Positions 829 to 21,036 of a DNA stretch of 21,036 bases are shown in pieces. Origin of the DNA: a virus (lineage: Duplodnaviria; Heunggongvirae; Uroviricota; Caudoviricetes); IMG/VR virus record IMGVR_UViG_2563366928_000010; one strand, written 5' to 3'. The notes below the pieces were generated by a model. The model worked only from the letters and a program-made list of their open reading frames with translations, ran no database searches and was not told the origin of the DNA. Numbering within the stretch: position 1 is the stretch's first letter; every line of letters starts with the position of its first letter. The position numbers and the translations under genes are program-made.

Positions 829-2789
829 TCATGCCGCAGCATCCGCGTTGTTCACTTCCACCTTCACACTGTCAATCAGCAGCGTATATGTCGCCGCCTT
901 TGATATGCCTGTCAGTTGCAGTTTGTCCGCCGCCCCTGATGCCGGAGATTTCACCAGTGTGAACGGCGTCCCCCGTTTCTCATCCAGTACCGGCGTCACC
1001 TGAATGCTGTTGTTTCCGGCAAACTCAAAAGCCAGTGTGTGCCATCCGTTATCAAAGACCCCGAACGTATCCAGCTTCGCATTCGGCTTCTTGTGGTGCA
1101 TCGCGTTCAGGTTCGTCGCATCCGTCTGCAGGAAGAAGGACATCAGCATGTCGTTGCCTTCCTCTGCCAGCGTCACTCCCTCCGGCAGGGACGACAACTG
1201 CCAGTAAATGCCCAGGGCAAACTGATTCGGCACCAGTGAACCCGGCAACTTAAACCGTACGCTCACACGTCCCCCCTTCTTCAGTAACTCCACTCCCTGT
1301 CCGGCTGCATCATGCTCCAGAAACCAGATGTGGTTTTCCGGTTTATTCAGTTGCAGGGCCTTACCTCCCGTAGCCCCCGCATCACTGACCACCGCTTCAG
1401 CAATGTTTTTGTTAACATTGTCTCCGCTCGCCGGTTTGTGATAATAGCGCCAGCCCTGTGATGCCAGGTCTTCGCCGGACGCCAGCAGACTCATCAGGGT
1501 TCGGTTACTGACCGGGGCTTCCGGCTCTCTCTCCGTACCTTCACCGGAAGGTCCGGTGGGCTTCACCGTATCAGGCTGTTTTCCGGTAATGAATTCAGCG
1601 TTTCTCCCGGCATGCACAAGAATCGCCGTTGCCAGACGGTCGGAAATAATCCCACGACGTGCCCATGATCCAAAATGCGTTTTACGGTCAGCCGTCGTCC
1701 AGGTTTTGGCGTCCGTTCGACCACCGGCTACGTAATACCCAATATCCGCAACATCCGGATCTTCTGACGGCTCGTTGGTACCCACATTTCGCCCGTTTTC
1801 ATCCGTCATAAACGGCACAAAGAAGATTTTTTTTGCGGATTTCGTCTTGTATGCACCATACACCGCATCGTATTGCGAAGAATAAGTCTGCTTCCAGTAG
1901 TAGGTCGTGTCGCCACAAATCCAGGGAACTGATGACGGAGAGCCCCCGAGACACTGACCTCCGAATTCCGACAGGTCAGAACGATATTTTTCCACCATGG
2001 AATCAAACAGCCCCGGCTGAGTGGCGTATGCACCCTGTTTCAAATCAAACTCGCCCTGCATCCAGACCACTGCAAGCAGAATATTTTTAGGGTTGGCCTT
2101 CAGTGCGGCCTGAGTACGGGTAAGCAGGTCCTTGTACAGTGGCTTATCTACACCCCAGCGTGCCGAGGTCTCGCTTGCGCCGGTGGATTCGCTGAAGGTA
2201 CCTTCATCGCCCGCCAAAAATGCAGAACCACCACGGCAGCACGGAACCAGAAGAATACCGGCATTCGCCGGAATAAACGGCAACAATTTCTTCGCGATAT
2301 GTAATCCCTGCCCCACGCATCCATACTGAGCTGCGCTGGCTTTCGGGTGTGAAAACTTACTCAAATCCTGAACATCATGCAGGCAGTGGTCCGCAGGAAT
2401 AATGTCATTGTAGTTACAGGACGCACCACCCGGCGTGACAGTGCTGCGACGCGCCAGCTGTTTAATACGCGGGTCCGGACGGTCATATGTCTCCGGCAGC
2501 GGAAGCCCTTCACCATACGCCATACCGTTTGACTGCCCGGCCAGGGCAACAACAAAGTAATACTCCGGGTTGCTGGTGGTGCTGATAACTGCGCCTTCTC
2601 CATCCGACGGCTTCACCACCACAGGTGTGGTGACATCACCTTCCGCCGCAATGGCCTGCATCAGGGTATAAGGCGTGATGGCCACCGGACTGCAAATGGC
2701 TGCCACCCCTCCTTCAGTTTTTGTGTCAGTCGTTTCGCAAGGTCTGACGGCGATGCCGCCCTGACCACGTCATAGTGTTTAAATGCCAT
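829..2789 (-). pseudogene. nanS-p: Prophage sialate O-acetylesterase NanS-p-like gene (SASA/SGNH esterase core), apparently disrupted by a single-base frameshift near codon 30
   Basis: Strong SD GGGAGG + ATG at 2789 gives MAFKHYDVVRAASPSDLAKRLTQKLKEGWQPF then stops at 2661-2663 after 42 codons; 625-codon ORF 829..2706 continues in another frame with no ATG (only GTG with adjacent SD); GQSNG esterase motif in the long frame. Confidence 0.6.
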
Positions 2790-3387: not shown

Positions 3388-3816
3388 TCACGGTTTAAAA
3401 TCCAGCACTCCATTGTGAAATACTTTATATACTTCCGGAGACGGCGGAACTGGTATATCAGCATGCTTCACCGCATTCATCGCTTCACGACATAAATCGG
3501 GGTCTCCACCTTCTCTTTTAACCTGTAGCAGAAGACCATTCGGGGCCATATACATTCTCAGTGAACACTCTTTTCCTGAATACTTACTCGCATCCTTTAA
3601 CTGTTCTTCTATGGCTTTCCTGACCTGAATGGCATACTGCCTGATTTCTTCACTGGCATCAGGGGTACGTTCCGATGAGCTCAAATTTTGCGACTTTATT
3701 AATTTATCTGAGTGATACAGAGAAGCATCATAATTATTTGTCGATACATCTTTTGTGCAGCCAGTTGTCAGACTGGCTAATATCAAAACAAGAACTGGTA
3801 CAGCACGGCAATACAT
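3388..3816 (-). CDS. Lipoprotein with TolA C-terminal (domain III)-like domain, 142 aa
   Basis: ATG at 3816 with GGAGA SD 8 nt upstream; signal peptide MYCRAVPVLVLILASLTTGC with lipobox; C-terminal half SKYSGKECSLRMYMAPNGLLLQVKREGGDPDLCREAMNAVKHADIPVPPSPEVYKVFHNGVLDFKP resembles recalled E. coli TolA C-terminus (...SYAGKTCTLRIKLAPDGMLLDIKPEGGDPALCQAAL...VYEVFKNAPLDFKP). Confidence 0.7.
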   Translation of the reverse strand: MYCRAVPVLVLILASLTTGCTKDVSTNNYDASLYHSDKLIKSQNLSSSERTPDASEEIRQYAIQVRKAIEEQLKDASKYSGKECSLRMYMAPNGLLLQVKREGGDPDLCREAMNAVKHADIPVPPSPEVYKVFHNGVLDFKP

Positions 3817-4094: not shown

Positions 4095-4171
4095 TGGACC
4101 GCCATCGAGGACTCGAACCCCGCGCAGCCAGCTTCGAAGGCTGGCGCTCTATCCCGATGAGCTAATGGCGG
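4095..4171 (-). tRNA. tRNA-Arg (anticodon UCG)
   Basis: 77 nt cloverleaf CCGCCAT..GCTC/GAGC D-stem..anticodon stem CCAGC/GCTGG with loop CTTCGAA..T-loop TTCGAGT..ATGGCGG-T-CCA, folded by hand. Confidence 0.75.
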
Positions 4172-4180
4172 TATGTGATA

Positions 4181-4256
4181 TGGTGGCCCTTGCTGGATTT
4201 GAACCAGCGACCTGGCGATTATGAGTCGCTCGCTCTCACCACTGAGCTAAAGGGCC
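4181..4256 (-). tRNA. tRNA with CAU anticodon, ileX/ileZ-like (tRNA-Ile2 lysidine type; would score as tRNA-Met in automated tools)
   Basis: GGCCCTTTAGCTCAGTGGTGAGAGCGAGCGACTCATAATCGCCAGGTCGCTGGTTCAAATCCAGCAAGGGCCACCA; closer to recalled E. coli ileX than to elongator tRNA-Met. Confidence 0.8.
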
Positions 4257-4296: not shown

Positions 4297-4555
4297 TCAT
4301 CCGTTCTGACTGACTAAATCCTGAACTTCCCGAACCGTCTGCTCAAAACGTTCAGTCTCCAGCTCAACGCCTGTAGCACGACGGCCCAGTGCCAGTGCAG
4401 CTTTAACTGTTGAACCTGACCCCATAAAAAAATCTGCAACCAGGTCACCCGGACGACTGCTTGCGCTGATTATCTGCTGCAGCATTTCTGCCGGTTTTTC
4501 GCACGGATGTTTCCCGGGATAGAACTGCACCGGTTTATGCGTCCAGACATCGGTA
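4297..4555 (-). pseudogene. C-terminal remnant of a beta-class N6A/N4C DNA methyltransferase, ending at the IS1 boundary
   Basis: Translation ...HKPVQFYPGKHPCEKPAEMLQQIISASSRPGDLVADFFMGSGSTVKAALALGRRATGVELE carries motif-I-like FxGSGST and KP motif; reading frame upstream of IS1 hits a stop within about 50 codons and shows no catalytic DPPY region. Confidence 0.5.
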
Positions 4556-4570
4556 GGTAATGACTCCAAC

Positions 4571-5074
4571 TTATTGATAGTGTTTTATGTTCAGATAATG
4601 CCCGATGACTTTGTCATGCAGCTCCACCGATTTTGAGAACGACAGCAACTTCCGTCCCAGCCGTGCCAGGTGCTGCCTCAGATTCAGGTTATGCCGCTCA
4701 ATTCGCTGCGTATATCGCTTGCTGATTACGTGCAGCTTTCCCTTCAGGCGGGATTCATACAGCGGCCAGCCATCCGTCATCCATATCACCACGTCAAAGG
4801 GTGACAGCAGGCTCATAAGACGCCCCAGCGTCGCCATAGTGCGTTCACCGAATACGTGCGCAACAACCGTCTTCCGGAGACTGTCATACGCGTAAAACAG
4901 CCAGCGCTGGCGCGATTTAGCCCCGACATAGCCCCACTGTTCGTCCATTTCCGCGCAGACGATGACGTCACTGCCCGGCTGTATGCGCGAGGTTACCGAC
5001 TGCGGCCTGAGTTTTTTAAGTGACGTAAAATCGTGTTGAGGCCAACGCCCATAATGCGGGCAGTTGCCCGGCAT
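4571..5074 (-). CDS. insB: IS1 transposase InsB (expressed as InsAB' by frameshift)
   Basis: 167 aa ORF overlapping insA 3' end in the -1 frame, as in IS1. Confidence 0.85.
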
Positions 5075-5268
5075 CCAACGCCATTCATGGCCATATCAAT
5101 GATTTTCTGGTGCGTACCGGGTTGAGAAGCGGTGTAAGTGAACTGCAGTTGCCATGTTTTACGGCAGTGAGAGCAGAGATAGCGCTGATGTCCGGCGGTG
5201 CTTTTGCCGTTACGCACCACCCCGTCAGTAGCTGAACAGGAGGGACAGCTGATAGAAACAGAAGCCAC
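4993..5268 (-). CDS. insA: IS1 transposase InsA
   Basis: 91 aa [43 protein letters not shown]... Zn-finger InsA. Confidence 0.9.
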
Positions 5269-5408
5269 TGGAGCACCTCAAAAACACCATCATACACTAA
5301 ATCAGTAAGTTGGCAGCATCACCCATCGGTATACGGCACCTGCGCCGTCACGCCAAAATACCGCCGCAGTCGGCATTCACAACCACCAGCGCATTTAACG
5401 TTCAGGCA

Positions 5409-5433
5409 CAAAAAAACCCGCTCGACGGCGGGT
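5409..5433 (-). terminator. Putative intrinsic terminator (minus-strand sense)
   Basis: Hairpin ACCCGC-tcgacg-GCGGGT (5416-5433) preceded on plus strand by A7 (a U-run after the hairpin on the minus strand). Confidence 0.45.
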
Positions 5434-5479
5434 TTAAGCTGTGTGACGAAGTAACCACTCTTAACAGCATAACCAATTT

Positions 5480-5861
5480 TTTACGTACGTAAACTACTAA
5501 ATGATATTTGTGAGAATGCCACCGAGTGTTCAAAACACCACCACAAATACATAAGAAAACTTCAACAAATAACCAATGAATAATTTCCGATGTTATTTTT
5601 AGGTTGTTTAAATTAAGCCAAAAAATTATAGGGCGCTTATAAATAAGTGTCATTAATATAAATCAGCTAATAGATTTATTTTTGTTCAAACAAGAGCCAT
5701 GAATAGGATTAGATAGAAAAGGTTCAGATAAAAATAGAGATCTACGTCACAAATTAAATGAGAAACTAAAACTTACATCTTGAAATAATCACATTGATTA
5801 GATGAATATTTATCGCGCAGTGACATCATTTTTTTATAATAGTTCAAAAAAAGGGCGTACA
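5480..5861 (+). promoter_or_regulatory. AT-rich upstream regulatory region of the porin gene (exact promoter not resolved)
   Basis: About 380 bp strongly AT-rich non-coding DNA immediately upstream of the porin start, typical of enterobacterial porin control regions. Confidence 0.35.
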
Positions 5862-6944
5862 ATGAAAAAATTAACAGTGGCAATTTCTGCTGTAGCTGCA
5901 TCAGTACTGATGGCGATGTCTGCTCAGGCAGCTGAAATTTATAATAAAGACAGTAACAAGCTGGATCTATACGGGAAAGTTAATGCCAAGCACTACTTCT
6001 CCTCTAATGATGCAGATGATGGTGATACTACTTATGCTCGTCTTGGCTTCAAAGGTGAAACCCAAATCAACGATCAACTGACTGGTTTCGGTCAGTGGGA
6101 ATATGACTTCAAAGGCAACCGTGCTGAATCTCAAGGTTCTTCCAAAGACAAAACCCGTCTTGCATTTGCAGGCCTGAAATTTGGTGATTACGGCTCAATC
6201 GATTACGGTCGTAACTACGGTGTAGCATACGACATCGGTGCGTGGACTGACGTTCTGCCAGAATTCGGTGGTGATACCTGGACCCAGACAGATGTGTTCA
6301 TGACTGGCCGCACTACTGGTGTTGCAACTTATCGTAACAACGACTTCTTTGGTCTGGTCGATGGCCTGAACTTTGCTGCTCAGTATCAGGGTAAAAATGA
6401 CCGCACTGACGTAACTGAAGCCAATGGTGATGGTTTCGGTTTCTCCACTACTTATGAGTATGAAGGATTCGGCGTGGGTGCAACCTATGCTAAATCAGAT
6501 CGCACTGACGGTCAGGTCGCCTATGGTAAGAGCAAATTCAATGCCTCCGGCAAAAATGCGGAAGTATGGGCTGCAGGCCTGAAATATGATGCGAACAATA
6601 TCTATCTGGCTACCACATATTCTGAAACTCAGAATATGACCGTTTTTGGTAATAACCATATTGCAAACAAAGCACAAAACTTTGAAGCAGTAGCACAATA
6701 TCAGTTTGACTTCGGTCTGCGCCCATCTGTTGCTTACCTTCAGTCAAAAGGTAAAGACCTTGGTGTTCATGGTGACCGAGACTTAGTCAAGTATGTCGAT
6801 GTCGGTGCTACTTACTACTTTAATAAAAACATGTCCACTTTTGTTGATTACAAAATCAACTTAATTGACGATAGTAAGTTTACCAAAACAGCTGGTATTG
6901 ATACCGACGACATCGTCGCTGTAGGTCTGGTTTATCAGTTCTAA
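5862..6944 (+). CDS. nmpC: Outer-membrane general porin, NmpC/Lc/OmpC family (phage-borne)
   Basis: ATG at 5862 with AAGGG SD; signal peptide [23 protein letters not shown]; [16 protein letters not shown]... and C-terminal ...VGLVYQF beta-barrel terminus; matches recalled NmpC/Lc porins. Confidence 0.85.
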
Positions 6945-7081: not shown

Positions 7082-7106
7082 GGGGGCGTTTCCACGCCCC
7101 ATTTTT
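7082..7106 (+). terminator. Intrinsic terminator of the porin gene
   Basis: Stem GGGGCG/CGCCCC (7083-7088, 7095-7100) with 6 nt loop then T5 run 7102-7106. Confidence 0.6.
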
Positions 7107-7132: not shown

Positions 7133-7516
7133 TCAATTAGAATTATTAGCAACGATATCCATATCTAACCGGATATCTAATGCCATTAACATCCCTTCAA
7201 TTATGCCCTCAGCCTTCTGTAACCTTTTCCCGATATAACCATCCGAGCAGCAATGCTTACTTGCCAGTGACATGAATGTCATACCACATACATAATAATC
7301 TACTAATAAATCGTGTAAATCGCTGTTGTTCTTTTTCAGACGGGCCATGCACCCGCAAATGATCATCGCGTCATCGTCACAACATTGCGGGCGAGATTTT
7401 ACTTTTGAAGGAATTAATCCCTTAAAACCGGCAGCAATGGACGACCAGGTCACATCCTCATGATTATTTGCCGCCCATGCGCCCCAGCGTTCAAGAACCA
7501 TCTGAATATCACGCAT
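7133..7516 (-). CDS. Q: Late-gene antiterminator Q (phage 82 / DLP12 QuuD type)
   Basis: 127 aa from ATG at 7516: [60 protein letters not shown]... with Cys-rich Zn-binding region; matches recalled DLP12 YbcQ/QuuD. Confidence 0.8.
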
Positions 7517-8373
7517 TATTCGCACTCACCAACCAGATTGAGAATGACCGCTGCACCGTCGTCTTCCATGCATTCACCCTTACCACTTGCCAGAAACCAG
7601 CGGCACACCTCCACGGCTTCAGCGCGTGTCACCGGTTTGATGGTTGCCAGCAATTTTTCAAGGTAGCGCTCGCGGTCATATACCGATTCGTGATGCTCAG
7701 AGTAACCAAACTCATCGCCCTGTTCTTTAGTTGCAGTGTGGCGAACACTGTAGAGCCAGTCCCAGTAAACGAACTCGCGAACAACATCAGACAGCGTATA
7801 AGGCTCAGGCAGCACATCGCGATATCCATCAACAAATGCCCGACGCTGTTCATCAATTTCGTTCATGCGGCTGCCGCCAATGCTTCCGGCTTTTTTCTCT
7901 GCCGCAGTCCAGCCCCAGAGATGATCGTTGATAAATTTCTGGGAAGACCTGATGACCCGCTCTGCTTCCACATCTTCGAGCGCTGCTTCATAGCTACCAA
8001 ACGTAGCCCTGACTGATGCCGCTTTTTTGATGTTCTCCCGGGCGTTCCTGATAACCTGCGCAGGGTTATCCATGCCGATGATGCCGAACGCAACTTGGAA
8101 AGGTTCGTAACCATTCGCCAGCAGATAACGCGAATAGCGTTCCTGAGCCTCTTTTGGGGAAATTTTAATTTTCACCAGCGCAGCCTCAGCAGCATCCAGA
8201 TGTGCGGGTTCGTTCAGACGGATAACCTCCAGCACCCAAAGATAAGCATCAGTCTGCTTATGCCCGGTGATTCTCCGTTGCTCTGGCAGGGGCTTGATGT
8301 TTGCGAGGGCGGAGCTGTACGCTGCCGTCGGGATGGTGAATAGTGCTTTATGTTCGTTATTATCAGTACGCAT
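7516..8373 (-). CDS. Hypothetical phage protein, 285 aa, translationally coupled between primase and Q
   Basis: ATG at 8373 overlaps primase stop; stop overlaps Q start (TAATG); no family recognised by eye. Confidence 0.6.
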
Positions 8374-9341
8374 TACGCAACCGCCTTTTTCTTATGGAAA
8401 ACCAGCTCTCGAACCTGATCACCGTTCATGAGCATATTGTTGAAATCATCGTGATCCGGCCAGTACACGCTCACGCGCTGCAGGTCATTCTTTGCCATCA
8501 GATTGGCATGAGCACATTCGCAAGCCGCAGCCAGCCCGGTGGCGCTGTTCTCGTCACGGTCGGCAAAAATAATCAGGTGCAGAACACCAGCTGGTACGCG
8601 AAACTTTTTCATAAAGCCGCTGTTAATGGTTGCCCAGGTGTTCACGTTATAAATCTGGTGCGCTGACAGCGCTGTTTCGATGCCTTCGGCGATACCCAGA
8701 GTGCTGGCGACAGGAAACATGCGGATAGCTACAGAACGAGCGTGATCCAAATAGTTATCTTCCTGCAGGGATTTGAGGCGCTTTGCACTGCTACCGATAT
8801 CTGCTTTTTTATCACCATCAAGCAGAGTCTGGTGCAGATAGCACAACTCCCCTTTATCGTCCGTAGCAAGTGAATAAAGAGACTGGAACACACTCCCGTT
8901 GTGTCTCTGCCTGGCATTGAACCGGATCGCCTCAGCAGGAAGACTGAATATTCCACGAGAATTAAGATACGCTGCGCCGGATGTACCACGCAGTGCCTCC
9001 AGTTTTGAAAACTTGCTCAATACCCGTTTGCGTAAGCTGGTGGCGCTGCTGGTTACCGGGATTTTAACCCGTTGGTAATCATTACCGATCAGGCGGTCTA
9101 TTTCGGTACAAATCTCGTTAAATGGCTTCGCCTGTGTCAGGGTGACAAGTTTCATACCATCGCCACTACCACATACACAGATCCACGTTCCTGCACCGTC
9201 GCGGTCGTCAATTCGGAACTTGCCACGTGCACCGCATACCGGGCATTCACCCTTGAAGTGATTTTTTCCGGTTATCGGCGGCAGACCGAAGTGCTCTAAT
9301 ATTTCAGGCCAGCGGCCTTTCGCTGCATCTGCTGTTTTCAT
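8373..9341 (-). CDS. Phage DNA primase (Zn-ribbon + Toprim)
   Basis: N-terminal CPVCGARGKFRIDD...GTWICVCG zinc ribbon; Toprim motifs GIAEGIETALS and IIFADRDENS (DxD). Confidence 0.8.
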   Translation of the reverse strand: MKTADAAKGRWPEILEHFGLPPITGKNHFKGECPVCGARGKFRIDDRDGAGTWICVCGSGDGMKLVTLTQAKPFNEICTEIDRLIGNDYQRVKIPVTSSATSLRKRVLSKFSKLEALRGTSGAAYLNSRGIFSLPAEAIRFNARQRHNGSVFQSLYSLATDDKGELCYLHQTLLDGDKKADIGSSAKRLKSLQEDNYLDHARSVAIRMFPVASTLGIAEGIETALSAHQIYNVNTWATINSGFMKKFRVPAGVLHLIIFADRDENSATGLAAACECAHANLMAKNDLQRVSVYWPDHDDFNNMLMNGDQVRELVFHKKKAVA

Positions 9342-9342
9342 C

Positions 9343-11001
9343 TTACTGACTCAGATTGTTTATATTTTTCTGGAGTTGGTGCTTTGCCTGCATGATGCGC
9401 CAGGCCTCACTGCCTGCCGGTATCTCACGTCGTTCATCACGTTCCTGAGATAAATCAATCGTTGTTTGTGCGTTTTCAGTGACCTTCTGAACCCGCTGGT
9501 GGCCTTTGGCAAACCGGATCAGTTTGTGTCTGATGTAGTTATTTACCTCAGGGGTAATTTCCATCGGAAAGTTACTCAGTCCGTCAGGCCACTCACCGAA
9601 CTTTTCCCGGAAAGTGTGAGCACACCATCCGTCACTGACTGGACGCCCCAGCGAAGCACGCTGGCGCTGATAAAATTTGATCTGACTCCACCAGGACTGT
9701 TTCTCTGCCTTCGTCGACTGATGCTGATTTTTACCCAGCTTATTAAGTTTGCGGCTAGTGTCAGTATCAACGTCTTCACCTCGCAGCGGCTTGTGTCCAC
9801 ATTTCGGGCAAACATAGACGCCTGCTGGCTTCATGTAGTGGCATTGAGGGCATTCATGTGGCAGTTTTTCGGCCCGTTCCTCAACTGCCCGGCGCGCGCT
9901 TTCCTCCATGCCGTCAGACTTACCGGGAAGCTCGTCGTACTCGATTGAATCCGGATAACCCAAACGGTGCACGGTGCCGCTGTGATCGAAGATAAGGCAG
10001 GACTCTTTACCCGGTGCGGTGCGCAGCCCACGCCCGAGCGCCTGCAACCAGCGAATTTCGCTTTTTGTTGGCCTGGCGTAGATGATGCAACGAACGTCAC
10101 TATCGAATCCGGCTACCAGAACGCCCACACTAACGATGATTTTCGTTGCACCGGTTTCAAAGCGGTGAATGATGGTCTGGCGCTCATCTACCGGAGTGTC
10201 TGCGGTCATTACCTCAGCGTTAACACCCGCCAGGTTAAACTGGATTGTCAGGTAATTGGCGTGGGCTACGTTGACGCAGAAAGCGATGGTAGGTAGATCC
10301 CGACCATTCTCCAGCCAGTTCTGTACAATGTCGCCCACCAGCGTAGAGCCGCACATGATTTCAGCCAGCTGTGTTTCGTTGTAATCGCGGCCGTACTCAA
10401 GCGAAGATGTGGTTTTAACACCTTTCAGATCCGGCTTAGTTGGCGCGTAAAATTCGTATTTACTCAGATCGCCACGCTGGATTAACTCGCCGATGGTGGT
10501 CGGTTTAATCAGTCGGTCATAGTATTTGCCCAGGAACGGGGAAAACGGAGTACCCGACAGGCCAATCACCTTTACGCCTTTGCCGCGCAGACGTTCGATA
10601 TCCTTCAGGATGCGTTTTTTACGCAGGTGCGCTTCGTCGATAATCAGCAGATCGATATTTTCAGGAAAAACACGACGAATAAGCGTATCAGCGCTGGCAA
10701 TCTGAATTTTCCGGTCCGGATCGTAGTTCGGGTGATCCGCCCAGATATAACCGATTTCATCTCCAGGTAAACCATACTGCACGAACCGATTAGCCGTCTG
10801 ACCAATCAGGATGGTGTACGGAACACAGAACAGAGCGCGCATACCACGGCTGACAAAACCAGCAACTATGAAGGCTGCCAGACCCGTTTTACCGCTACCT
10901 GTTGGCGAATACACCATGAAGGTGTCGTTTGCCTTCCAGTAACGGCGCAACATGTTTAACGCCCGTTCCTGTGCAAAATTCGGCGTGATCGTCAGCTGCA
11001 T
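9343..11001 (-). CDS. Phage SF2 DEAH-box replicative helicase with C-terminal Zn ribbons
   Basis: Strong SD GGGGAGG + ATG at 11001; Walker A SPTGSGKT, Walker B LLIIDEAH, SGTP motif; C-terminal CPQCHY...CPKCGH. Confidence 0.85.
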   Translation of the reverse strand: MQLTITPNFAQERALNMLRRYWKANDTFMVYSPTGSGKTGLAAFIVAGFVSRGMRALFCVPYTILIGQTANRFVQYGLPGDEIGYIWADHPNYDPDRKIQIASADTLIRRVFPENIDLLIIDEAHLRKKRILKDIERLRGKGVKVIGLSGTPFSPFLGKYYDRLIKPTTIGELIQRGDLSKYEFYAPTKPDLKGVKTTSSLEYGRDYNETQLAEIMCGSTLVGDIVQNWLENGRDLPTIAFCVNVAHANYLTIQFNLAGVNAEVMTADTPVDERQTIIHRFETGATKIIVSVGVLVAGFDSDVRCIIYARPTKSEIRWLQALGRGLRTAPGKESCLIFDHSGTVHRLGYPDSIEYDELPGKSDGMEESARRAVEERAEKLPHECPQCHYMKPAGVYVCPKCGHKPLRGEDVDTDTSRKLNKLGKNQHQSTKAEKQSWWSQIKFYQRQRASLGRPVSDGWCAHTFREKFGEWPDGLSNFPMEITPEVNNYIRHKLIRFAKGHQRVQKVTENAQTTIDLSQERDERREIPAGSEAWRIMQAKHQLQKNINNLSQ

Positions 11002-11594
11002 TGTGCTGCCTCCCCATGGTTCAGCGGGAGGCGCCTGAAATGGTGACCGCGATGAGACTTTGTTCTTCCAGCAATAACAGCATAAACACTACCGTGATCA
11101 AACCCGGCACTAATTAGCGCCTTTTTCCCGCAAAAGGTTTGCTCTTCCCTGGTCGCAATATTTGTGGCGACAATCAGGCCCTTAAATTGTTTGTTGTTCG
11201 CCCCCTGAGAATTATTCAGCCCGGTGTGAATAGAATGCTGAATGTTTTCGCTATGGCTAACCCACTCCAGATTGGATGCATGGTTATTCAGCTTGTTGCC
11301 GTCCTTATGGTTCACTTCAGGGTGGTTGTAAGGGTTGCTGCAAAAAGCCAGCGCTACCAGACGGTGTACGGCAAAAGTTTGGCGATTACGTTTGTAGCTC
11401 AGGTTAACGGTTTTATATCCATCCCGGCGCACTCTTCCCTTGAGGAACACGCCACGAATTTGGCGAATAAAAAATTCCGATTCAGCAATTCGATTAACCC
11501 CACGGATGCGTCCCGCCGAGCTAACGAGGTAAGCATCACCATACGGAGCAACAGGAACCGGAAGCCATTTTTCACCATCAAAACTGTTAACCAT
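10992..11594 (-). CDS. HNH homing-type endonuclease (NUMOD4-like N-terminus + HNH_3-like core)
   Basis: Internal ATG at 11594 with GAGGTGA SD; GEKWLPVP...YLVSSAGRIRG and HRLVALAFCSNPYNHPEVNHKDGNKLNNHASNLEW motifs; 10 nt overlap with helicase start. Confidence 0.75.
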   Translation of the reverse strand: MVNSFDGEKWLPVPVAPYGDAYLVSSAGRIRGVNRIAESEFFIRQIRGVFLKGRVRRDGYKTVNLSYKRNRQTFAVHRLVALAFCSNPYNHPEVNHKDGNKLNNHASNLEWVSHSENIQHSIHTGLNNSQGANNKQFKGLIVATNIATREEQTFCGKKALISAGFDHGSVYAVIAGRTKSHRGHHFRRLPLNHGEAAQCS

Positions 11595-11612
11595 AAAATC
11601 ACCTCTGAACAT

Positions 11613-12360: not shown

Positions 12361-12471
12361 TCTTTAGCCTCACACCGGATACTCTGTTATCCAAGAATGT
12401 TAAACGCGAGAATCCAAAGTATCAAGAAATTCTGTTACTTTAGTATCAGCAGCCATGAAAGGAGAAGAAAA
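12361..12471. promoter_or_regulatory. Divergent promoter/operator region (OR-like) between cro-position gene and repressor
   Basis: Repeated (A/G)GTATC(A/C) motifs at 12377-12382 (inverted), 12418-12425, 12442-12449; candidate minus-strand promoter -35 TTGATA (complement of 12420-12425), 17 bp spacer, -10 TAACAT (complement of 12397-12402). Confidence 0.45.
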
Positions 12472-13128
12472 ATGAAATCTTTAGGTGAACGCCTCATCAA
12501 CGCACGACAAAAAGCTGGGTTAACGCAAGATGCGTTGGCTAAAAAAGCAGGGGTCACCAGAGTTGCAATCAGTAAAGCCGAGCAAGGCCTTACAAAAAGT
12601 TTCAACGGTGACACCCTTTTTAAAGTCGCAGCTGCACTGCAGTGTTCACCGCAGTGGCTTCAGAACGGAGATGAAAAAGATAAGCATTGGGAAAATAATG
12701 TTAAGAGCTGCCCACAGAGAGACACAGCACACTCTTACCCTGTAATTAACTGGGTTCAGGCAGGATTATTCGCAACTGCTGGTGATGACTACAACATGTA
12801 TGATCAGGATAATTGGAGGCATTCTGTAAAATACGCTGGTGAGAGGGGGTTCTGGCTGGAAGTGCACGGAGACTCAATGACTTCGCCCGTAGGAATAACA
12901 TTTCCTGAAGGAATGTCGATCCTTGTCAACCCAGATAAAGAAGTTTTTTCAGGGTGTTACGTCATCGCCAGAAAAAAATCTACCCATGAAGCAACATTCA
13001 AAAAATATATTTCTGAAATGGGAAAGGCGTTTCTAAAGCCCCTTAATCCACAATATCCAATCATAGAAATGGACAATGATTGCGAAATAGTAGGTGTTGT
13101 GGTTGATGCCAGGTGGGATATTTTCTGA
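12472..13128 (+). CDS. cI: CI-like prophage repressor (N-terminal HTH_XRE + C-terminal S24 LexA-like autopeptidase)
   Basis: AAAGGAG SD + ATG at 12472; HTH LGERLINARQKAGLTQDALAKKAGVTRVAISKAE; S24 catalytic motifs GDSM and downstream Lys (ATFKKY). Confidence 0.85.
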   Translation: MKSLGERLINARQKAGLTQDALAKKAGVTRVAISKAEQGLTKSFNGDTLFKVAAALQCSPQWLQNGDEKDKHWENNVKSCPQRDTAHSYPVINWVQAGLFATAGDDYNMYDQDNWRHSVKYAGERGFWLEVHGDSMTSPVGITFPEGMSILVNPDKEVFSGCYVIARKKSTHEATFKKYISEMGKAFLKPLNPQYPIIEMDNDCEIVGVVVDARWDIF

Positions 13129-15420: not shown

Positions 15421-15609
15421 ATGAACATTTATTTCAGAATAGTTATATCACTGGCAATTATCACATGTATTTACGGATTAATCGTTCCGGCCCTCATATC
15501 AATGAAGGATACGGTAGCAGTGATTTCTGGCTTTGCTCTGGCGTGTCTGACCCCGCCCTGCATTTATGCCATTTATAAGGGTCTTTCTTTTTCTAAGGAT
15601 AAAAGATGA
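15421..15609 (+). CDS. Small membrane protein with two predicted TM helices (62 aa)
   Basis: AGGAGG SD; hydrophobic segments RIVISLAIITCIYGLIVPALI and AVISGFALACLTPPCIYAIY; stop overlaps start of downstream SPFH gene (ATGA). Confidence 0.55.
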   Translation: MNIYFRIVISLAIITCIYGLIVPALISMKDTVAVISGFALACLTPPCIYAIYKGLSFSKDKR

Positions 15610-16433
15610 AAAAATTACTTTTTGCTTTAGCCCTTGTTCTGCCGACCATTGGCCTTGTCGGTTGCGATCGCGTTGAGCCTGGTAATGTGGGCATCAAAGT
15701 AAACAAACTGGGCGACGATAAAGGCGTCGGTGAAGTGGTCGGTGTTGGGCGCTACTGGACGGGATGGAACACTGAGGTTTACATCTTCCCGACCTTTAAG
15801 CAGATGAAGACCTACGATGATCCATTCAGTTTCCAGATGAGTGACGGTACAACCATCGGCTATCACATCGGCGTGGCCTACAAAGTTGATCCATCCAAAG
15901 TTACCACAGTCTTTCAGACCTACCGCAAAGGCGTGGACGACATTACCGACACCGACCTGCGCCAGAAGATAGCCGACGCACTCAACCGACTGGCCAGCAA
16001 AATGACCACCGACAAATTTATCGACGGCGGCAAGTCTGAGCTGCTGGATGCAGCTCTTAAAGACATTCAGGAAGAAATGACGCCCATCGGTATTCAGGTA
16101 ATGAGCCTCTCATATGTGGGTAAGCCGGAGTACCCGCCTACTGTTATCGACAGCATTAATGCCAAAGTCACGGCGAACCAGAAAACCCTGCAACGCGAGC
16201 AGGAAGTAAAACAGCGCGAAGCGGAAGCCAACATGTTGCGCGCGGAAGCTGCCGGACAGGCAGATGTGATTCGCACAAAAGCCCAGGCCGAAGCCGATGC
16301 TATTCGTTTACGCGGTGAAGCTCTGCGCCAGAACCCCGGTGTTATGGAGCTGGAAGCCATCAACAAGTGGAACGGTACACTGCCGCAATACATGACCAGC
16401 GGTGCCAACACACCATTTATTCAGGTTAAGTAA
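15606..16433 (+). CDS. SPFH/Band-7 (HflK/C, stomatin-like) domain lipoprotein, 275 aa
   Basis: AAGGA SD; lipoprotein signal MKKLLFALALVLPTIGLVGC with Asp at +2; SPFH core and Ala/Glu/Arg-rich coiled-coil tail QREQEVKQREAEANMLRAEAAGQADVIRTKAQAEADAIRLRGEAL. Confidence 0.8.
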   Translation: MKKLLFALALVLPTIGLVGCDRVEPGNVGIKVNKLGDDKGVGEVVGVGRYWTGWNTEVYIFPTFKQMKTYDDPFSFQMSDGTTIGYHIGVAYKVDPSKVTTVFQTYRKGVDDITDTDLRQKIADALNRLASKMTTDKFIDGGKSELLDAALKDIQEEMTPIGIQVMSLSYVGKPEYPPTVIDSINAKVTANQKTLQREQEVKQREAEANMLRAEAAGQADVIRTKAQAEADAIRLRGEALRQNPGVMELEAINKWNGTLPQYMTSGANTPFIQVK

Positions 16434-19749: not shown

Positions 19750-21036
19750 ATGAGTAACGTATCATACCCGACAGGCGTTGAAAACCATGGAGGATCACTC
19801 CGTATATGGTTTCACTATAATGGCAAACGTGTCAGAGAAAACCTCGGTGTTCCTGACACCGCCAAAAACCGGAAGATCGCAGGTGAACTTCGCACTTCCG
19901 TTTGTTTTGCAATCAGAATGGGGAGTTTCGACTACGCCACACAGTTCCCTAATTCCCCTAACCTGAAACACTTTGGTCTGGGAAAAAGAGAGATAACCGT
20001 TAAGGCACTTTCGGAAAAATGGTTGGACCTTAAGAAAATTGAGATTTGTGCGAATGCACTTAATCGTTACCAGTCAGTAATTAAAAACATGTTGCCTATG
20101 TTGGGTGAGAAAAAACTGGTTTCATCCATAACAAAAGAGGATTTACTTTTCGCAAGGAGAGATTTGTTGACCGGTTACCAAAAGCTTTCTAATGGAAAGA
20201 TTTCTTCCATAAAAGGGCGCTCAGTGGTCACAGTAAACTACTATATGACAACCATAGCTGGAATGTTTCAATTTGCAACAGATAATGGTTATACCTCAGG
20301 AAACCCATTTAACGGTCTGGCACCCTTAAAAAAGTCCAAGGTAAAACCAGATCCTCTCACCCGTGACGAATTTATTCGTTTTATTGAGGCTTGCCGTCAT
20401 CAACAAACAAAAAACCTGTGGATTCTCGCTGTATACACGGGTATTCGTCACGGGGAGCTGGTATCGCTGGCATGGGAAGATATAGATCTTAAAGCAAGGA
20501 CTATAACCATCCGTAGGAATTATACAAAACTTGGCGAATTCACTCCACCAAAAACCGATGCTGGCACCGGAAGGACAATTCATCTGGTTCAACCAGCTAT
20601 TGATGCTCTTAAAAGTCAGGCGGAAATGACCATGCTTGGAAAGCAACATTCTGTAGAGGTAAAGCAGAGGGAATATGGGAGAAGTACTGTGCATAAATGC
20701 ACTTTTGTTTTTAGTCCTCAGGTAATAAAACAGCGGCAGTTTTCCGGACCGCACTATAAGGTTGACTCCATCAGGGAGTCATGGACAAGTATCTTAAAAC
20801 GCGCAGGTCTGAGACACAGAAAATCGTACCAATCCAGGCATACTTATGCATGCTGGTCACTTGCCGCTGGAGCTAATCCTAGTTTTATCGCAAGCCAGAT
20901 GGGCCACACAAACGCACAAATGGTATTCAATGTTTACGGAGCATGGATGAAAGACAACAATCACGAACAGATAGAACTCCTTAACAAAAGACTATCTGAA
21001 AGTGTCCCATGTATGCCCCATAAGAAAGTGGGGTAA
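19750..21036 (+). CDS. int: Phage tyrosine integrase (site-specific recombinase), complete
   Basis: GGGAGG SD; N-terminal arm-binding-like YPTGVENHGGSLRIWFHYNGKRVRE; catalytic region RHTYACWSLAAGANPSFIASQMGHTNAQMVFNVYGAW (R..H...Y); stop at window end. Confidence 0.9.
   Translation: MSNVSYPTGVENHGGSLRIWFHYNGKRVRENLGVPDTAKNRKIAGELRTSVCFAIRMGSFDYATQFPNSPNLKHFGLGKREITVKALSEKWLDLKKIEICANALNRYQSVIKNMLPMLGEKKLVSSITKEDLLFARRDLLTGYQKLSNGKISSIKGRSVVTVNYYMTTIAGMFQFATDNGYTSGNPFNGLAPLKKSKVKPDPLTRDEFIRFIEACRHQQTKNLWILAVYTGIRHGELVSLAWEDIDLKARTITIRRNYTKLGEFTPPKTDAGTGRTIHLVQPAIDALKSQAEMTMLGKQHSVEVKQREYGRSTVHKCTFVFSPQVIKQRQFSGPHYKVDSIRESWTSILKRAGLRHRKSYQSRHTYACWSLAAGANPSFIASQMGHTNAQMVFNVYGAWMKDNNHEQIELLNKRLSESVPCMPHKKVG

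Follow-up and report, generated by a model that had tools for sequence, protein, structure and literature searches.

The DNA analysed here is a 21,036-nucleotide stretch from a virus of the class Caudoviricetes (IMG/VR record IMGVR_UViG_2563366928_000010), called the window below, which holds the early-to-late portion of a lambdoid prophage in reverse orientation. Between the gene for the late antiterminator Q and the phage tRNA genes, a copy of the insertion sequence IS1 lies within the truncated remnant of a DNA methyltransferase gene. Two Escherichia coli chromosomes from UK blood-culture isolates, NZ_OZ546925 (NZ_OZ546925.1; AF14) and NZ_OZ546911 (NZ_OZ546911.1), are 100% identical to the window, and comparisons were made with annotated E. 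coli (5,426 complete genomes) and with phage genome collections. Besides the IS1 element itself (4556-5323), the features of the locus are as follows.

4297-4555, minus strand: distal part of the methyltransferase remnant, residues ~268-352, with motif I as FFMGSGST and the stop codon at 4299-4297; 97.6% identical (tblastn) to the methylase of phage Stx2_95
4548-4555: left copy of the target-site duplication, CATCGGTA, abutting the IS1 end
4571-5074, minus strand: insB' frame of IS1, open over 167 codons, with S5C and S143L relative to K-12 InsB1
4993-5268, minus strand: insA of IS1, 91 amino acids, the repressor and N-terminal transposase part; protein identical to K-12 InsA (InsA1)
5324-5331: right copy of the target-site duplication, CATCGGTA, abutting the IS1 end
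5332-5369, minus strand: proximal 38 nt of the methyltransferase remnant, ~13 codons, residues ~255-267, LRRYFGVTAQVPY, ending at an old deletion breakpoint between 5369 and 5370
5370-5466, minus strand: conserved non-coding leader block with a terminator, homologous to the DNA just downstream of Q in Stx2_95 and in locus L002
5407-5435, minus strand: intrinsic-terminator-like hairpin found by pattern scan, AAACCCGCC-GTCGAG-GGCGGGTTT (hairpin 5435-5414) followed by a run of seven T (T7)

The element at 4556-5323 (minus strand) is a complete IS1 of exactly 768 bp that shares 766 of 768 positions (99.74%) with IS1A of E. coli K-12 MG1655. Its terminal inverted repeats are imperfect (GGTAATGAC.../GGTGATGCT...), with 18 of 23 end nucleotides matching in inverted orientation; the left repeat (IRL) forms the high-coordinate end and the right repeat (IRR) the low-coordinate end, and the transposase genes are co-oriented with the late operon of the prophage on the minus strand. 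The insA and insB' frames are both open and overlap, and an A6C slippery motif, AAAAAAC at 5017-5011 (IS position 307), marks the -1 frameshift site for the InsAB' transposase. In an identical genome, the Prokaryotic Genome Annotation Pipeline (PGAP) calls the element 'IS1-like element IS1A family transposase, programmed frameshift'. Reported traits of IS1 are a length of 768 bp, a target duplication of 8 or 9 bp and an A6C frameshift (PMC12428005). With every structural feature of the family present, this is a bona fide IS1: it has the length, inverted repeats, insA, insB' and A6C site of K-12 IS1A, its 8-bp duplication fits the reported 8-9 bp, and it differs from the K-12 element by two nucleotides and by its novel insertion site. 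Judged by its intact structure and recent insertion, the copy looks competent for transposition.

The two copies of the 8-bp direct repeat CATCGGTA directly abut the element, and a single other plus-strand copy occurs in the 21 kb, at 16085. When IS1 and one repeat (4556-5331) are removed from the window, the remaining DNA aligns without a gap to the IS1-free genome GN02050 over 3,625 nt at 99.97% identity. This gapless empty site together with the abutting repeats means that exactly 8 bp were duplicated and that insertion was by simple transposition, which bears out the preliminary description, made from the letters of the window alone, in its claims of a complete 768-bp IS1 and of a direct repeat left by simple transposition. 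Eighteen IS1-free genomes span the full reconstructed 1,005-bp site; among the empty-site matches, twelve records reach at least 99% identity, including two IS1-bearing ones, and the remainder extend down to ~95%. The junction between IS1 and its flank, searched with a 140-nt probe, occurs in just 2 of the 5,426 complete genomes, so the insertion is recent and lineage-specific. At least 39 places match IS1 in each of NZ_OZ546925.1 and NZ_OZ546911.1, compared with a median of 10 among genomes with any, which suggests that IS1 has expanded in their lineage.

With IS1 taken out, the minus-strand frame of the remnant has 98 codons and 297 nt (4297-4555 plus 5332-5369) and reads to LRRYFGVTAQVPYTDVWTHKPVQFYPGKHPCEKPAEMLQQIISASSRPGDLVADFFMGSGSTVKAALALGRRATGVELETERFEQTVREVQDLVSQNG before its stop codon. 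The remnant matches the Pfam family N6_N4_Mtase (PF01555; E=3.4e-23), covering profile positions 134-220 of 221 only, and the phage DNA methyltransferase family phrog_6952 (E=1e-61), and it retains motif I (FxGxG) as FFMGSGST. Among phage genomes, tblastn identified a full-length homologue, the 352-amino-acid 'DNA methylase' of the Stx2a-converting phage Stx2_95 (Stx, Shiga toxin), where the gene order is Q, a 65-amino-acid open reading frame (ORF), the methylase, three tRNAs, stx2AB and nanS-p. In full-length homologues DPPY occupies residues 35-38, the target-recognition domain lies centrally and FFMGSGST is close to the C-terminus, which is the beta-class order of motifs, and the Protein Data Bank (PDB) relatives of the full-length methylase are the RsrI, CcrM, MboIIA, DpnA and PvuII methylases.

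A 349-amino-acid version of the protein is encoded in E. coli O104:H4 at the equivalent position between Q and the tRNAs, in two places of the genome, and the remnant is identical to this paralogue at 91 of 94 positions. M.EcoGI and M.EcoGII are two prophage-borne beta-class enzymes of O104:H4, each of 349 amino acids and identical to each other at 333 of 349 positions (Murray et al. 2018, PMC5778455). M.EcoGII, a non-specific adenine methyltransferase, is silent in lysogens and does harm when expressed (PMC5778455), and its domain map assigns residues 1-134 and 260-349 to the Rossmann fold and 160-237 to the target-recognition domain (PMC11551740). Over M.EcoGII residues 255-348 the remnant is identical at 85 of 95 positions, the M.EcoGII sequence having been machine-read, with optical character recognition (OCR) errors; it was taken from the supplement of PMC11551740, contains a few such errors and is identical to the O104:H4 protein at 330 of 350 positions. 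By these comparisons the fragment is the C-terminal, S-adenosylmethionine (AdoMet or SAM)-binding quarter of a beta-class adenine methyltransferase of the M.EcoGI/M.EcoGII family, 349-352 amino acids in full. It is ~90-97% identical to these enzymes over residues 255-348, motif I included, and their full-length homologues sit likewise between Q and the phage tRNAs, whereas in the window only the last ~28% of the gene remains. The C-terminal tail of the remnant (...DLVSQNG) is of the Stx2_95 type (...DLASQNG), unlike that of M.EcoGII (...DLIV).

A tblastn search with the full-length protein found neither the DPPY motif nor the target-recognition domain at the locus or anywhere in the window, and the remnant therefore cannot methylate DNA and is a pseudogene. 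The preliminary description was right that the fragment derives from a beta-class methyltransferase, with motif I retained here and with homologues that carry DPPY towards the N-terminus and FxGxG towards the C-terminus. Two of its details need amending. It had the remnant abutting IS1 on the low-coordinate side, and the C-terminal part with motif I does lie there, but 38 nt of methyltransferase DNA are also found on the high-coordinate side, so that the element interrupts the remnant instead of bordering it. It had also described the N-terminal catalytic half as lost; this half is indeed absent from the window, but the loss is larger and extends over residues 1-254 of 352, ~72% of the protein.

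The position of the deletion was defined by DNA alignment with Stx2_95, which gives two blocks. The first joins window positions 5369 to 4074 to the last 297 nt of the methylase and the tRNAs (95% identity), and the second joins positions 5466 to 5371 to the 107 nt after Q (79%). Between them the window lacks 1,182 bp of the Stx2_95 arrangement, consisting of the 65-amino-acid ORF and methylase codons 1-254. The old breakpoint is thus between 5369 and 5370, 38 nt from IS1, and relative to Stx2_95 the deletion starts directly past the conserved terminator. Neither methylase residues 1-253 (tblastn) nor the deleted 1,182 bp (blastn) were found anywhere in the window; the only weak match to the full-length methylase elsewhere in the window is a motif-I-like stretch in an ORF at 7516-8373 (E=0.11).

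IS1-free GN02050 and DETEC-P829 both carry this 297-nt pseudogene, junction sequence included, which PGAP annotates as 'incomplete... missing N-terminus', and in GN02050 the annotated pseudogene ends at the base equivalent to 5369. The junction sequence in locus L002 is also identical to that of the window. With a 235-nt probe, the truncation junction was detected in 81 of the 5,426 genomes, IS1-free at the site, while many further genomes match this probe up to the breakpoint only (query positions 1-138) and have an annotated intact 'DNA-methyltransferase'; 1,904 genomes contain the deleted segment (L004:1316-2497). An identical junction in genomes without IS1 means that the truncation is older than the IS1 insertion and was not mediated by it, in agreement with the order of events first proposed. 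Comparison with IS1-free prophages found the same truncation, and no IS1-free relative combining the same flanks with an intact methylase was found among them. GN02050 shares the porin context of the window, and DETEC-P829 has a different Q directly beside the terminator block; through recombination, the truncated allele has thus entered two or more prophage backgrounds.

That the region between Q and the lysis genes is mosaic in lambdoid phages is long established. The junction probe distinguishes three architectures with common breakpoints, namely the truncated allele, the full-length allele and the terminator block alone, the last being the arrangement of K-12 prophage DLP12 between nmpC and essD. 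Stx2a phages such as P13374 (the O104:H4 Stx2 phage) keep just 37 codons of this gene in the interval from Q to the tRNAs, with the same tRNA-proximal 3' end retained and without IS1. Because its breakpoint differs (window-equivalent 4407 instead of 5369), the P13374 remnant represents an independent truncation. The suggestion that this interval is a rearrangement hotspot is thereby upheld. The remnant in P13374 is unannotated (L011 1801-1911, equivalent to window positions 4297-4407).

The window is related to both DLP12 and the Stx2 phages. Compared with DLP12 (quuD-nmpC-essD), the QuuD-type Q and the antisense porin are collinear at 87-95% identity (quuD 94.6% at the DNA level); the DLP12 nmpC carries an IS5, and DLP12 lacks the methylase and the tRNA genes. 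With the Stx2 phages (Q-methylase-tRNA-stx-nanS) the window shares the terminator block, the tRNA cluster and the NanS-p esterase. Relative to Stx2_95 it has no stx genes, with a TolA-domain lipoprotein gene in their stead, two tRNAs rather than three, and an added porin moron. The truncated methylase and the inserted IS1 set the window apart from the Stx phages and DLP12.

On the far side of IS1, a TAA at 5483-5481 is followed by about 50 open codons (5480-5332) that run through the terminator hairpin (5435-5414 plus T7); the short open frame and the hairpin had been observed in the preliminary description. These comprise the 13 methylase codons and 37 fortuitously open codons of the leader block. 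This block (5370-5466) is also homologous to the nmpC-essD intergenic region of DLP12, and the deletion has its left side at the low-coordinate edge of the block. The hairpin is kept in DLP12, Stx2_95 and P13374, and the minus-strand RNA of 5450-5400 folds at -16.8 kcal/mol compared with -10.3 +/- 2.5 for shuffled sequences. The ~100 nt around it (~5500-5407, minus strand) are ~99% identical to K-12 DLP12, against ~87% for the flanks, which suggests that this stretch is a conserved regulatory element comprising late promoter, qut and tR'. In DLP12 the promoter of the lysis operon has been placed in the nmpC-essD intergenic region and reported to be controlled by Q (PMC7918800). Given its position, its conservation and this promoter report for the homologous region, the hairpin is a probable tR'-type terminator of the late leader. 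The lambdoid late-leader arrangement is present, with Q upstream (7133-7516), the hairpin at 5435-5407 and the late genes downstream on the same strand. The late promoter PR' was not located by a consensus scan or among hand-picked candidates in the conserved block 5500-5440; the best sigma-70-like site is at 5653-5625 (minus strand, 11 of 12 positions), ~210 nt upstream of the terminator, and its -35 hexamer is not conserved in DLP12.

Homology to P13374 reaches ~30 nt further upstream than that to Stx2_95 (window 5481-5496, minus strand), and this extra stretch coincides in P13374 with the end of the Q gene, its final ~15 nt and stop codon. A Q gene that was replaced may therefore have left its stop codon as the TAA at 5483-5481, going by the weak evidence of an 86-nt alignment at 79% identity.

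We consider it highly probable that the locus records two separate decay events, an older deletion of 1,182 bp and then a very recent, lineage-specific insertion of IS1 into the dead remnant. Relative to the Stx2_95 layout, the first step would have removed the 65-amino-acid ORF and methylase codons 1-254, leaving a 98-codon 3' remnant fused to non-coding leader just past the terminator. The resulting allele has since moved between prophage backgrounds by recombination. In the second event an IS1A-type element would have inserted into the remnant, at a distance of 38 nt from the breakpoint, duplicating 8 bp. The IS1 lies ~90 nt downstream of the hairpin, co-oriented with and ahead of the two tRNAs and ~35 kb of late genes. 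Its presence would be selectively near-neutral in the lysogen, since nothing but dead sequence behind a terminator is hit. Any effect would probably take the form of polarity on late and tRNA gene expression after induction, which Q-modified RNA polymerase probably overrides.

Our results establish the anatomy of the locus, the order of its two events, the family of the methyltransferase and the rarity of the IS1 insertion, and we found no evidence contradicting this structural account. Several points nevertheless weigh against parts of the reading. A single full-length arrangement served as the reference for the deletion, and the true ancestor could differ from it in detail. The junction has no convincing microhomology; a GTGAATA heptamer occurs near both ends of the missing segment in Stx2_95, but it is offset. 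The tR' label of the hairpin rests on its position, its conservation and the promoter report (PMC7918800), and the InsB frame bears the two substitutions S5C and S143L, which might affect its function. The functional part, that is, neutrality, competence of the IS1 and read-through by Q-modified polymerase, is something we infer.

Among the alternatives, the one that survives best, though we hold it unlikely, gives the same anatomy a different cause. Repeated, independent truncation of the methylase gene, to 98 codons here and in 81 other genomes and to 37 codons in the Stx2a phages, would then reflect selection against a toxic, non-specific adenine methylase leaking from the late leader in lysogens instead of random mosaic recombination, and IS1, placed between the probable tR' and the late genes, might damp late or tRNA expression further and so help to domesticate a prophage that is otherwise nearly complete.

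Very improbable, in our view, is that the remnant has itself become useful, either through a small peptide that binds AdoMet or is dominant-negative, or through DNA signals for the expression or processing of the downstream tRNAs. The frame is open in all copies examined, and in the shorter remnants of the Stx2a phages, which also stand beside tRNAs, the tRNA-proximal end is always kept. Such retention is, however, expected if recombination breakpoints can occur at any point upstream of tRNA and late genes that are useful. The frame has no obvious start codon or ribosome-binding site and is entered from the terminator, PGAP calls it a pseudogene, and the two clinical isolates in which IS1 disrupts it show no sign of compensation.

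A deletion adjacent to IS1, which would make truncation and insertion a single event, has a certain appeal, since IS1 is known to promote adjacent deletions and the breakpoint is only 38 nt away; but a deletion of this kind would start at the end of the element and destroy the duplication, whereas here both 8-bp copies are intact, the breakpoint is offset and the same breakpoint is found in 81 genomes without IS1 at the site. We regard this explanation as refuted. The same applies to a methyltransferase gene that was intact until IS1 split it, with the N-terminal half directly across the element. The frame that stays open for ~50 codons across IS1 would seem to favour such a split, but just 13 of these codons are methylase-derived and the other 37 belong to leader and terminator DNA that is non-coding downstream of Q in other phages; the Pfam match is confined to profile positions 134-220 of 221, and tblastn recovers nothing of residues 1-253 in the window. 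The N-terminal sequence is hence not across IS1, and the fragment that remains is of methyltransferase origin. Finally, although IS1 is found at 39 or more places in the matching genomes and such repeats can be misassembled, a misplaced repeat is next to inconceivable here, because two independent complete (long-read-level) assemblies have the same junctions at 100% identity and a perfect 8-bp target duplication is not a product of misassembly.

The two-event history, with a recent IS insertion on top of an old deletion, is ordinary, a textbook example of layered prophage decay in a region already known to be mosaic, and for an identical genome RefSeq already annotates both the IS1 and a 'DNA methyltransferase, missing N-terminus' pseudogene. 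The sole addition is that the fossil is named as a member of the M.EcoGI/M.EcoGII family of non-specific adenine methylases, which is in wide use as a chromatin-footprinting tool. The IS1 junction, present in 2 of 5,426 complete genomes, can be used as a lineage marker, and the deletion junction, common to two Q contexts, as a tracer of recombination between prophages.

The prophage as a whole is nearly complete, lambdoid and similar to DLP12 and the Stx phages. In both NZ_OZ546925 and NZ_OZ546911 it adjoins btsS and continues downstream, on the same strand, with almost all of the genes for lysis, head and tail, one minor-tail gene being frameshifted. Its other features in the window are as follows.

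829-2706, minus strand: NanS-p-type sialate esterase
3388-3816, minus strand: predicted lipoprotein of 142 amino acids with a TolA C-terminal domain (PF06519, E=4e-23; phrog_5772, function unknown)
4095-4171, minus strand: phage tRNA-Arg (TCG)
4181-4256, minus strand: phage tRNA with anticodon CAT, called Met by ARAGORN and tRNA-Ile (ileZ-like) by PGAP
5862-6944, plus strand: porin moron of the OmpC/NmpC type (Pfam Porin_1, E=2.5e-151; 'porin OmpC' in PGAP)
7133-7516, minus strand: late antiterminator Q of the QuuD type (Pfam Phage_antitermQ, E=7e-54; quuD in PGAP)
8373-11612, minus strand: HNH, helicase and primase genes
12397-13128, plus strand: CI-like S24 repressor
19750-21036, plus strand: integrase

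The porin gene (5862-6944) is antisense to the late operon and placed between Q and the leader/terminator block; it is intact and has its own terminator at 7083-7100. The window has two phage tRNAs, and Stx2_95, P13374 and DETEC-P829 have an extra third one, a tRNA-Arg (anticodon TCT in P13374). Between the tRNAs and nanS-p, the lipoprotein gene at 3388-3816, whose product has a signal sequence of the form ...LTTGC, fills the slot of stx2AB in Stx2_95. This may be a moron whose product serves as a decoy of TolA, directed against colicins or filamentous phages, or has a role in superinfection exclusion.

Directly upstream of Q, the ORF at 7516-8373 (minus strand) encodes a 285-amino-acid member of phrog_6204 (unknown function; E=2e-182), with weak SAM-methyltransferase hints only (UPF0020, E=0.009; the tblastn motif I match at E=0.11). 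Two further genes are probably accessory, an HNH/NUMOD4 homing-endonuclease-like gene at 10992-11612 (minus strand) that adjoins the replication helicase, and a gene for an SPFH/Band-7 protein at 15606-16433 (plus strand) in the early-left region.

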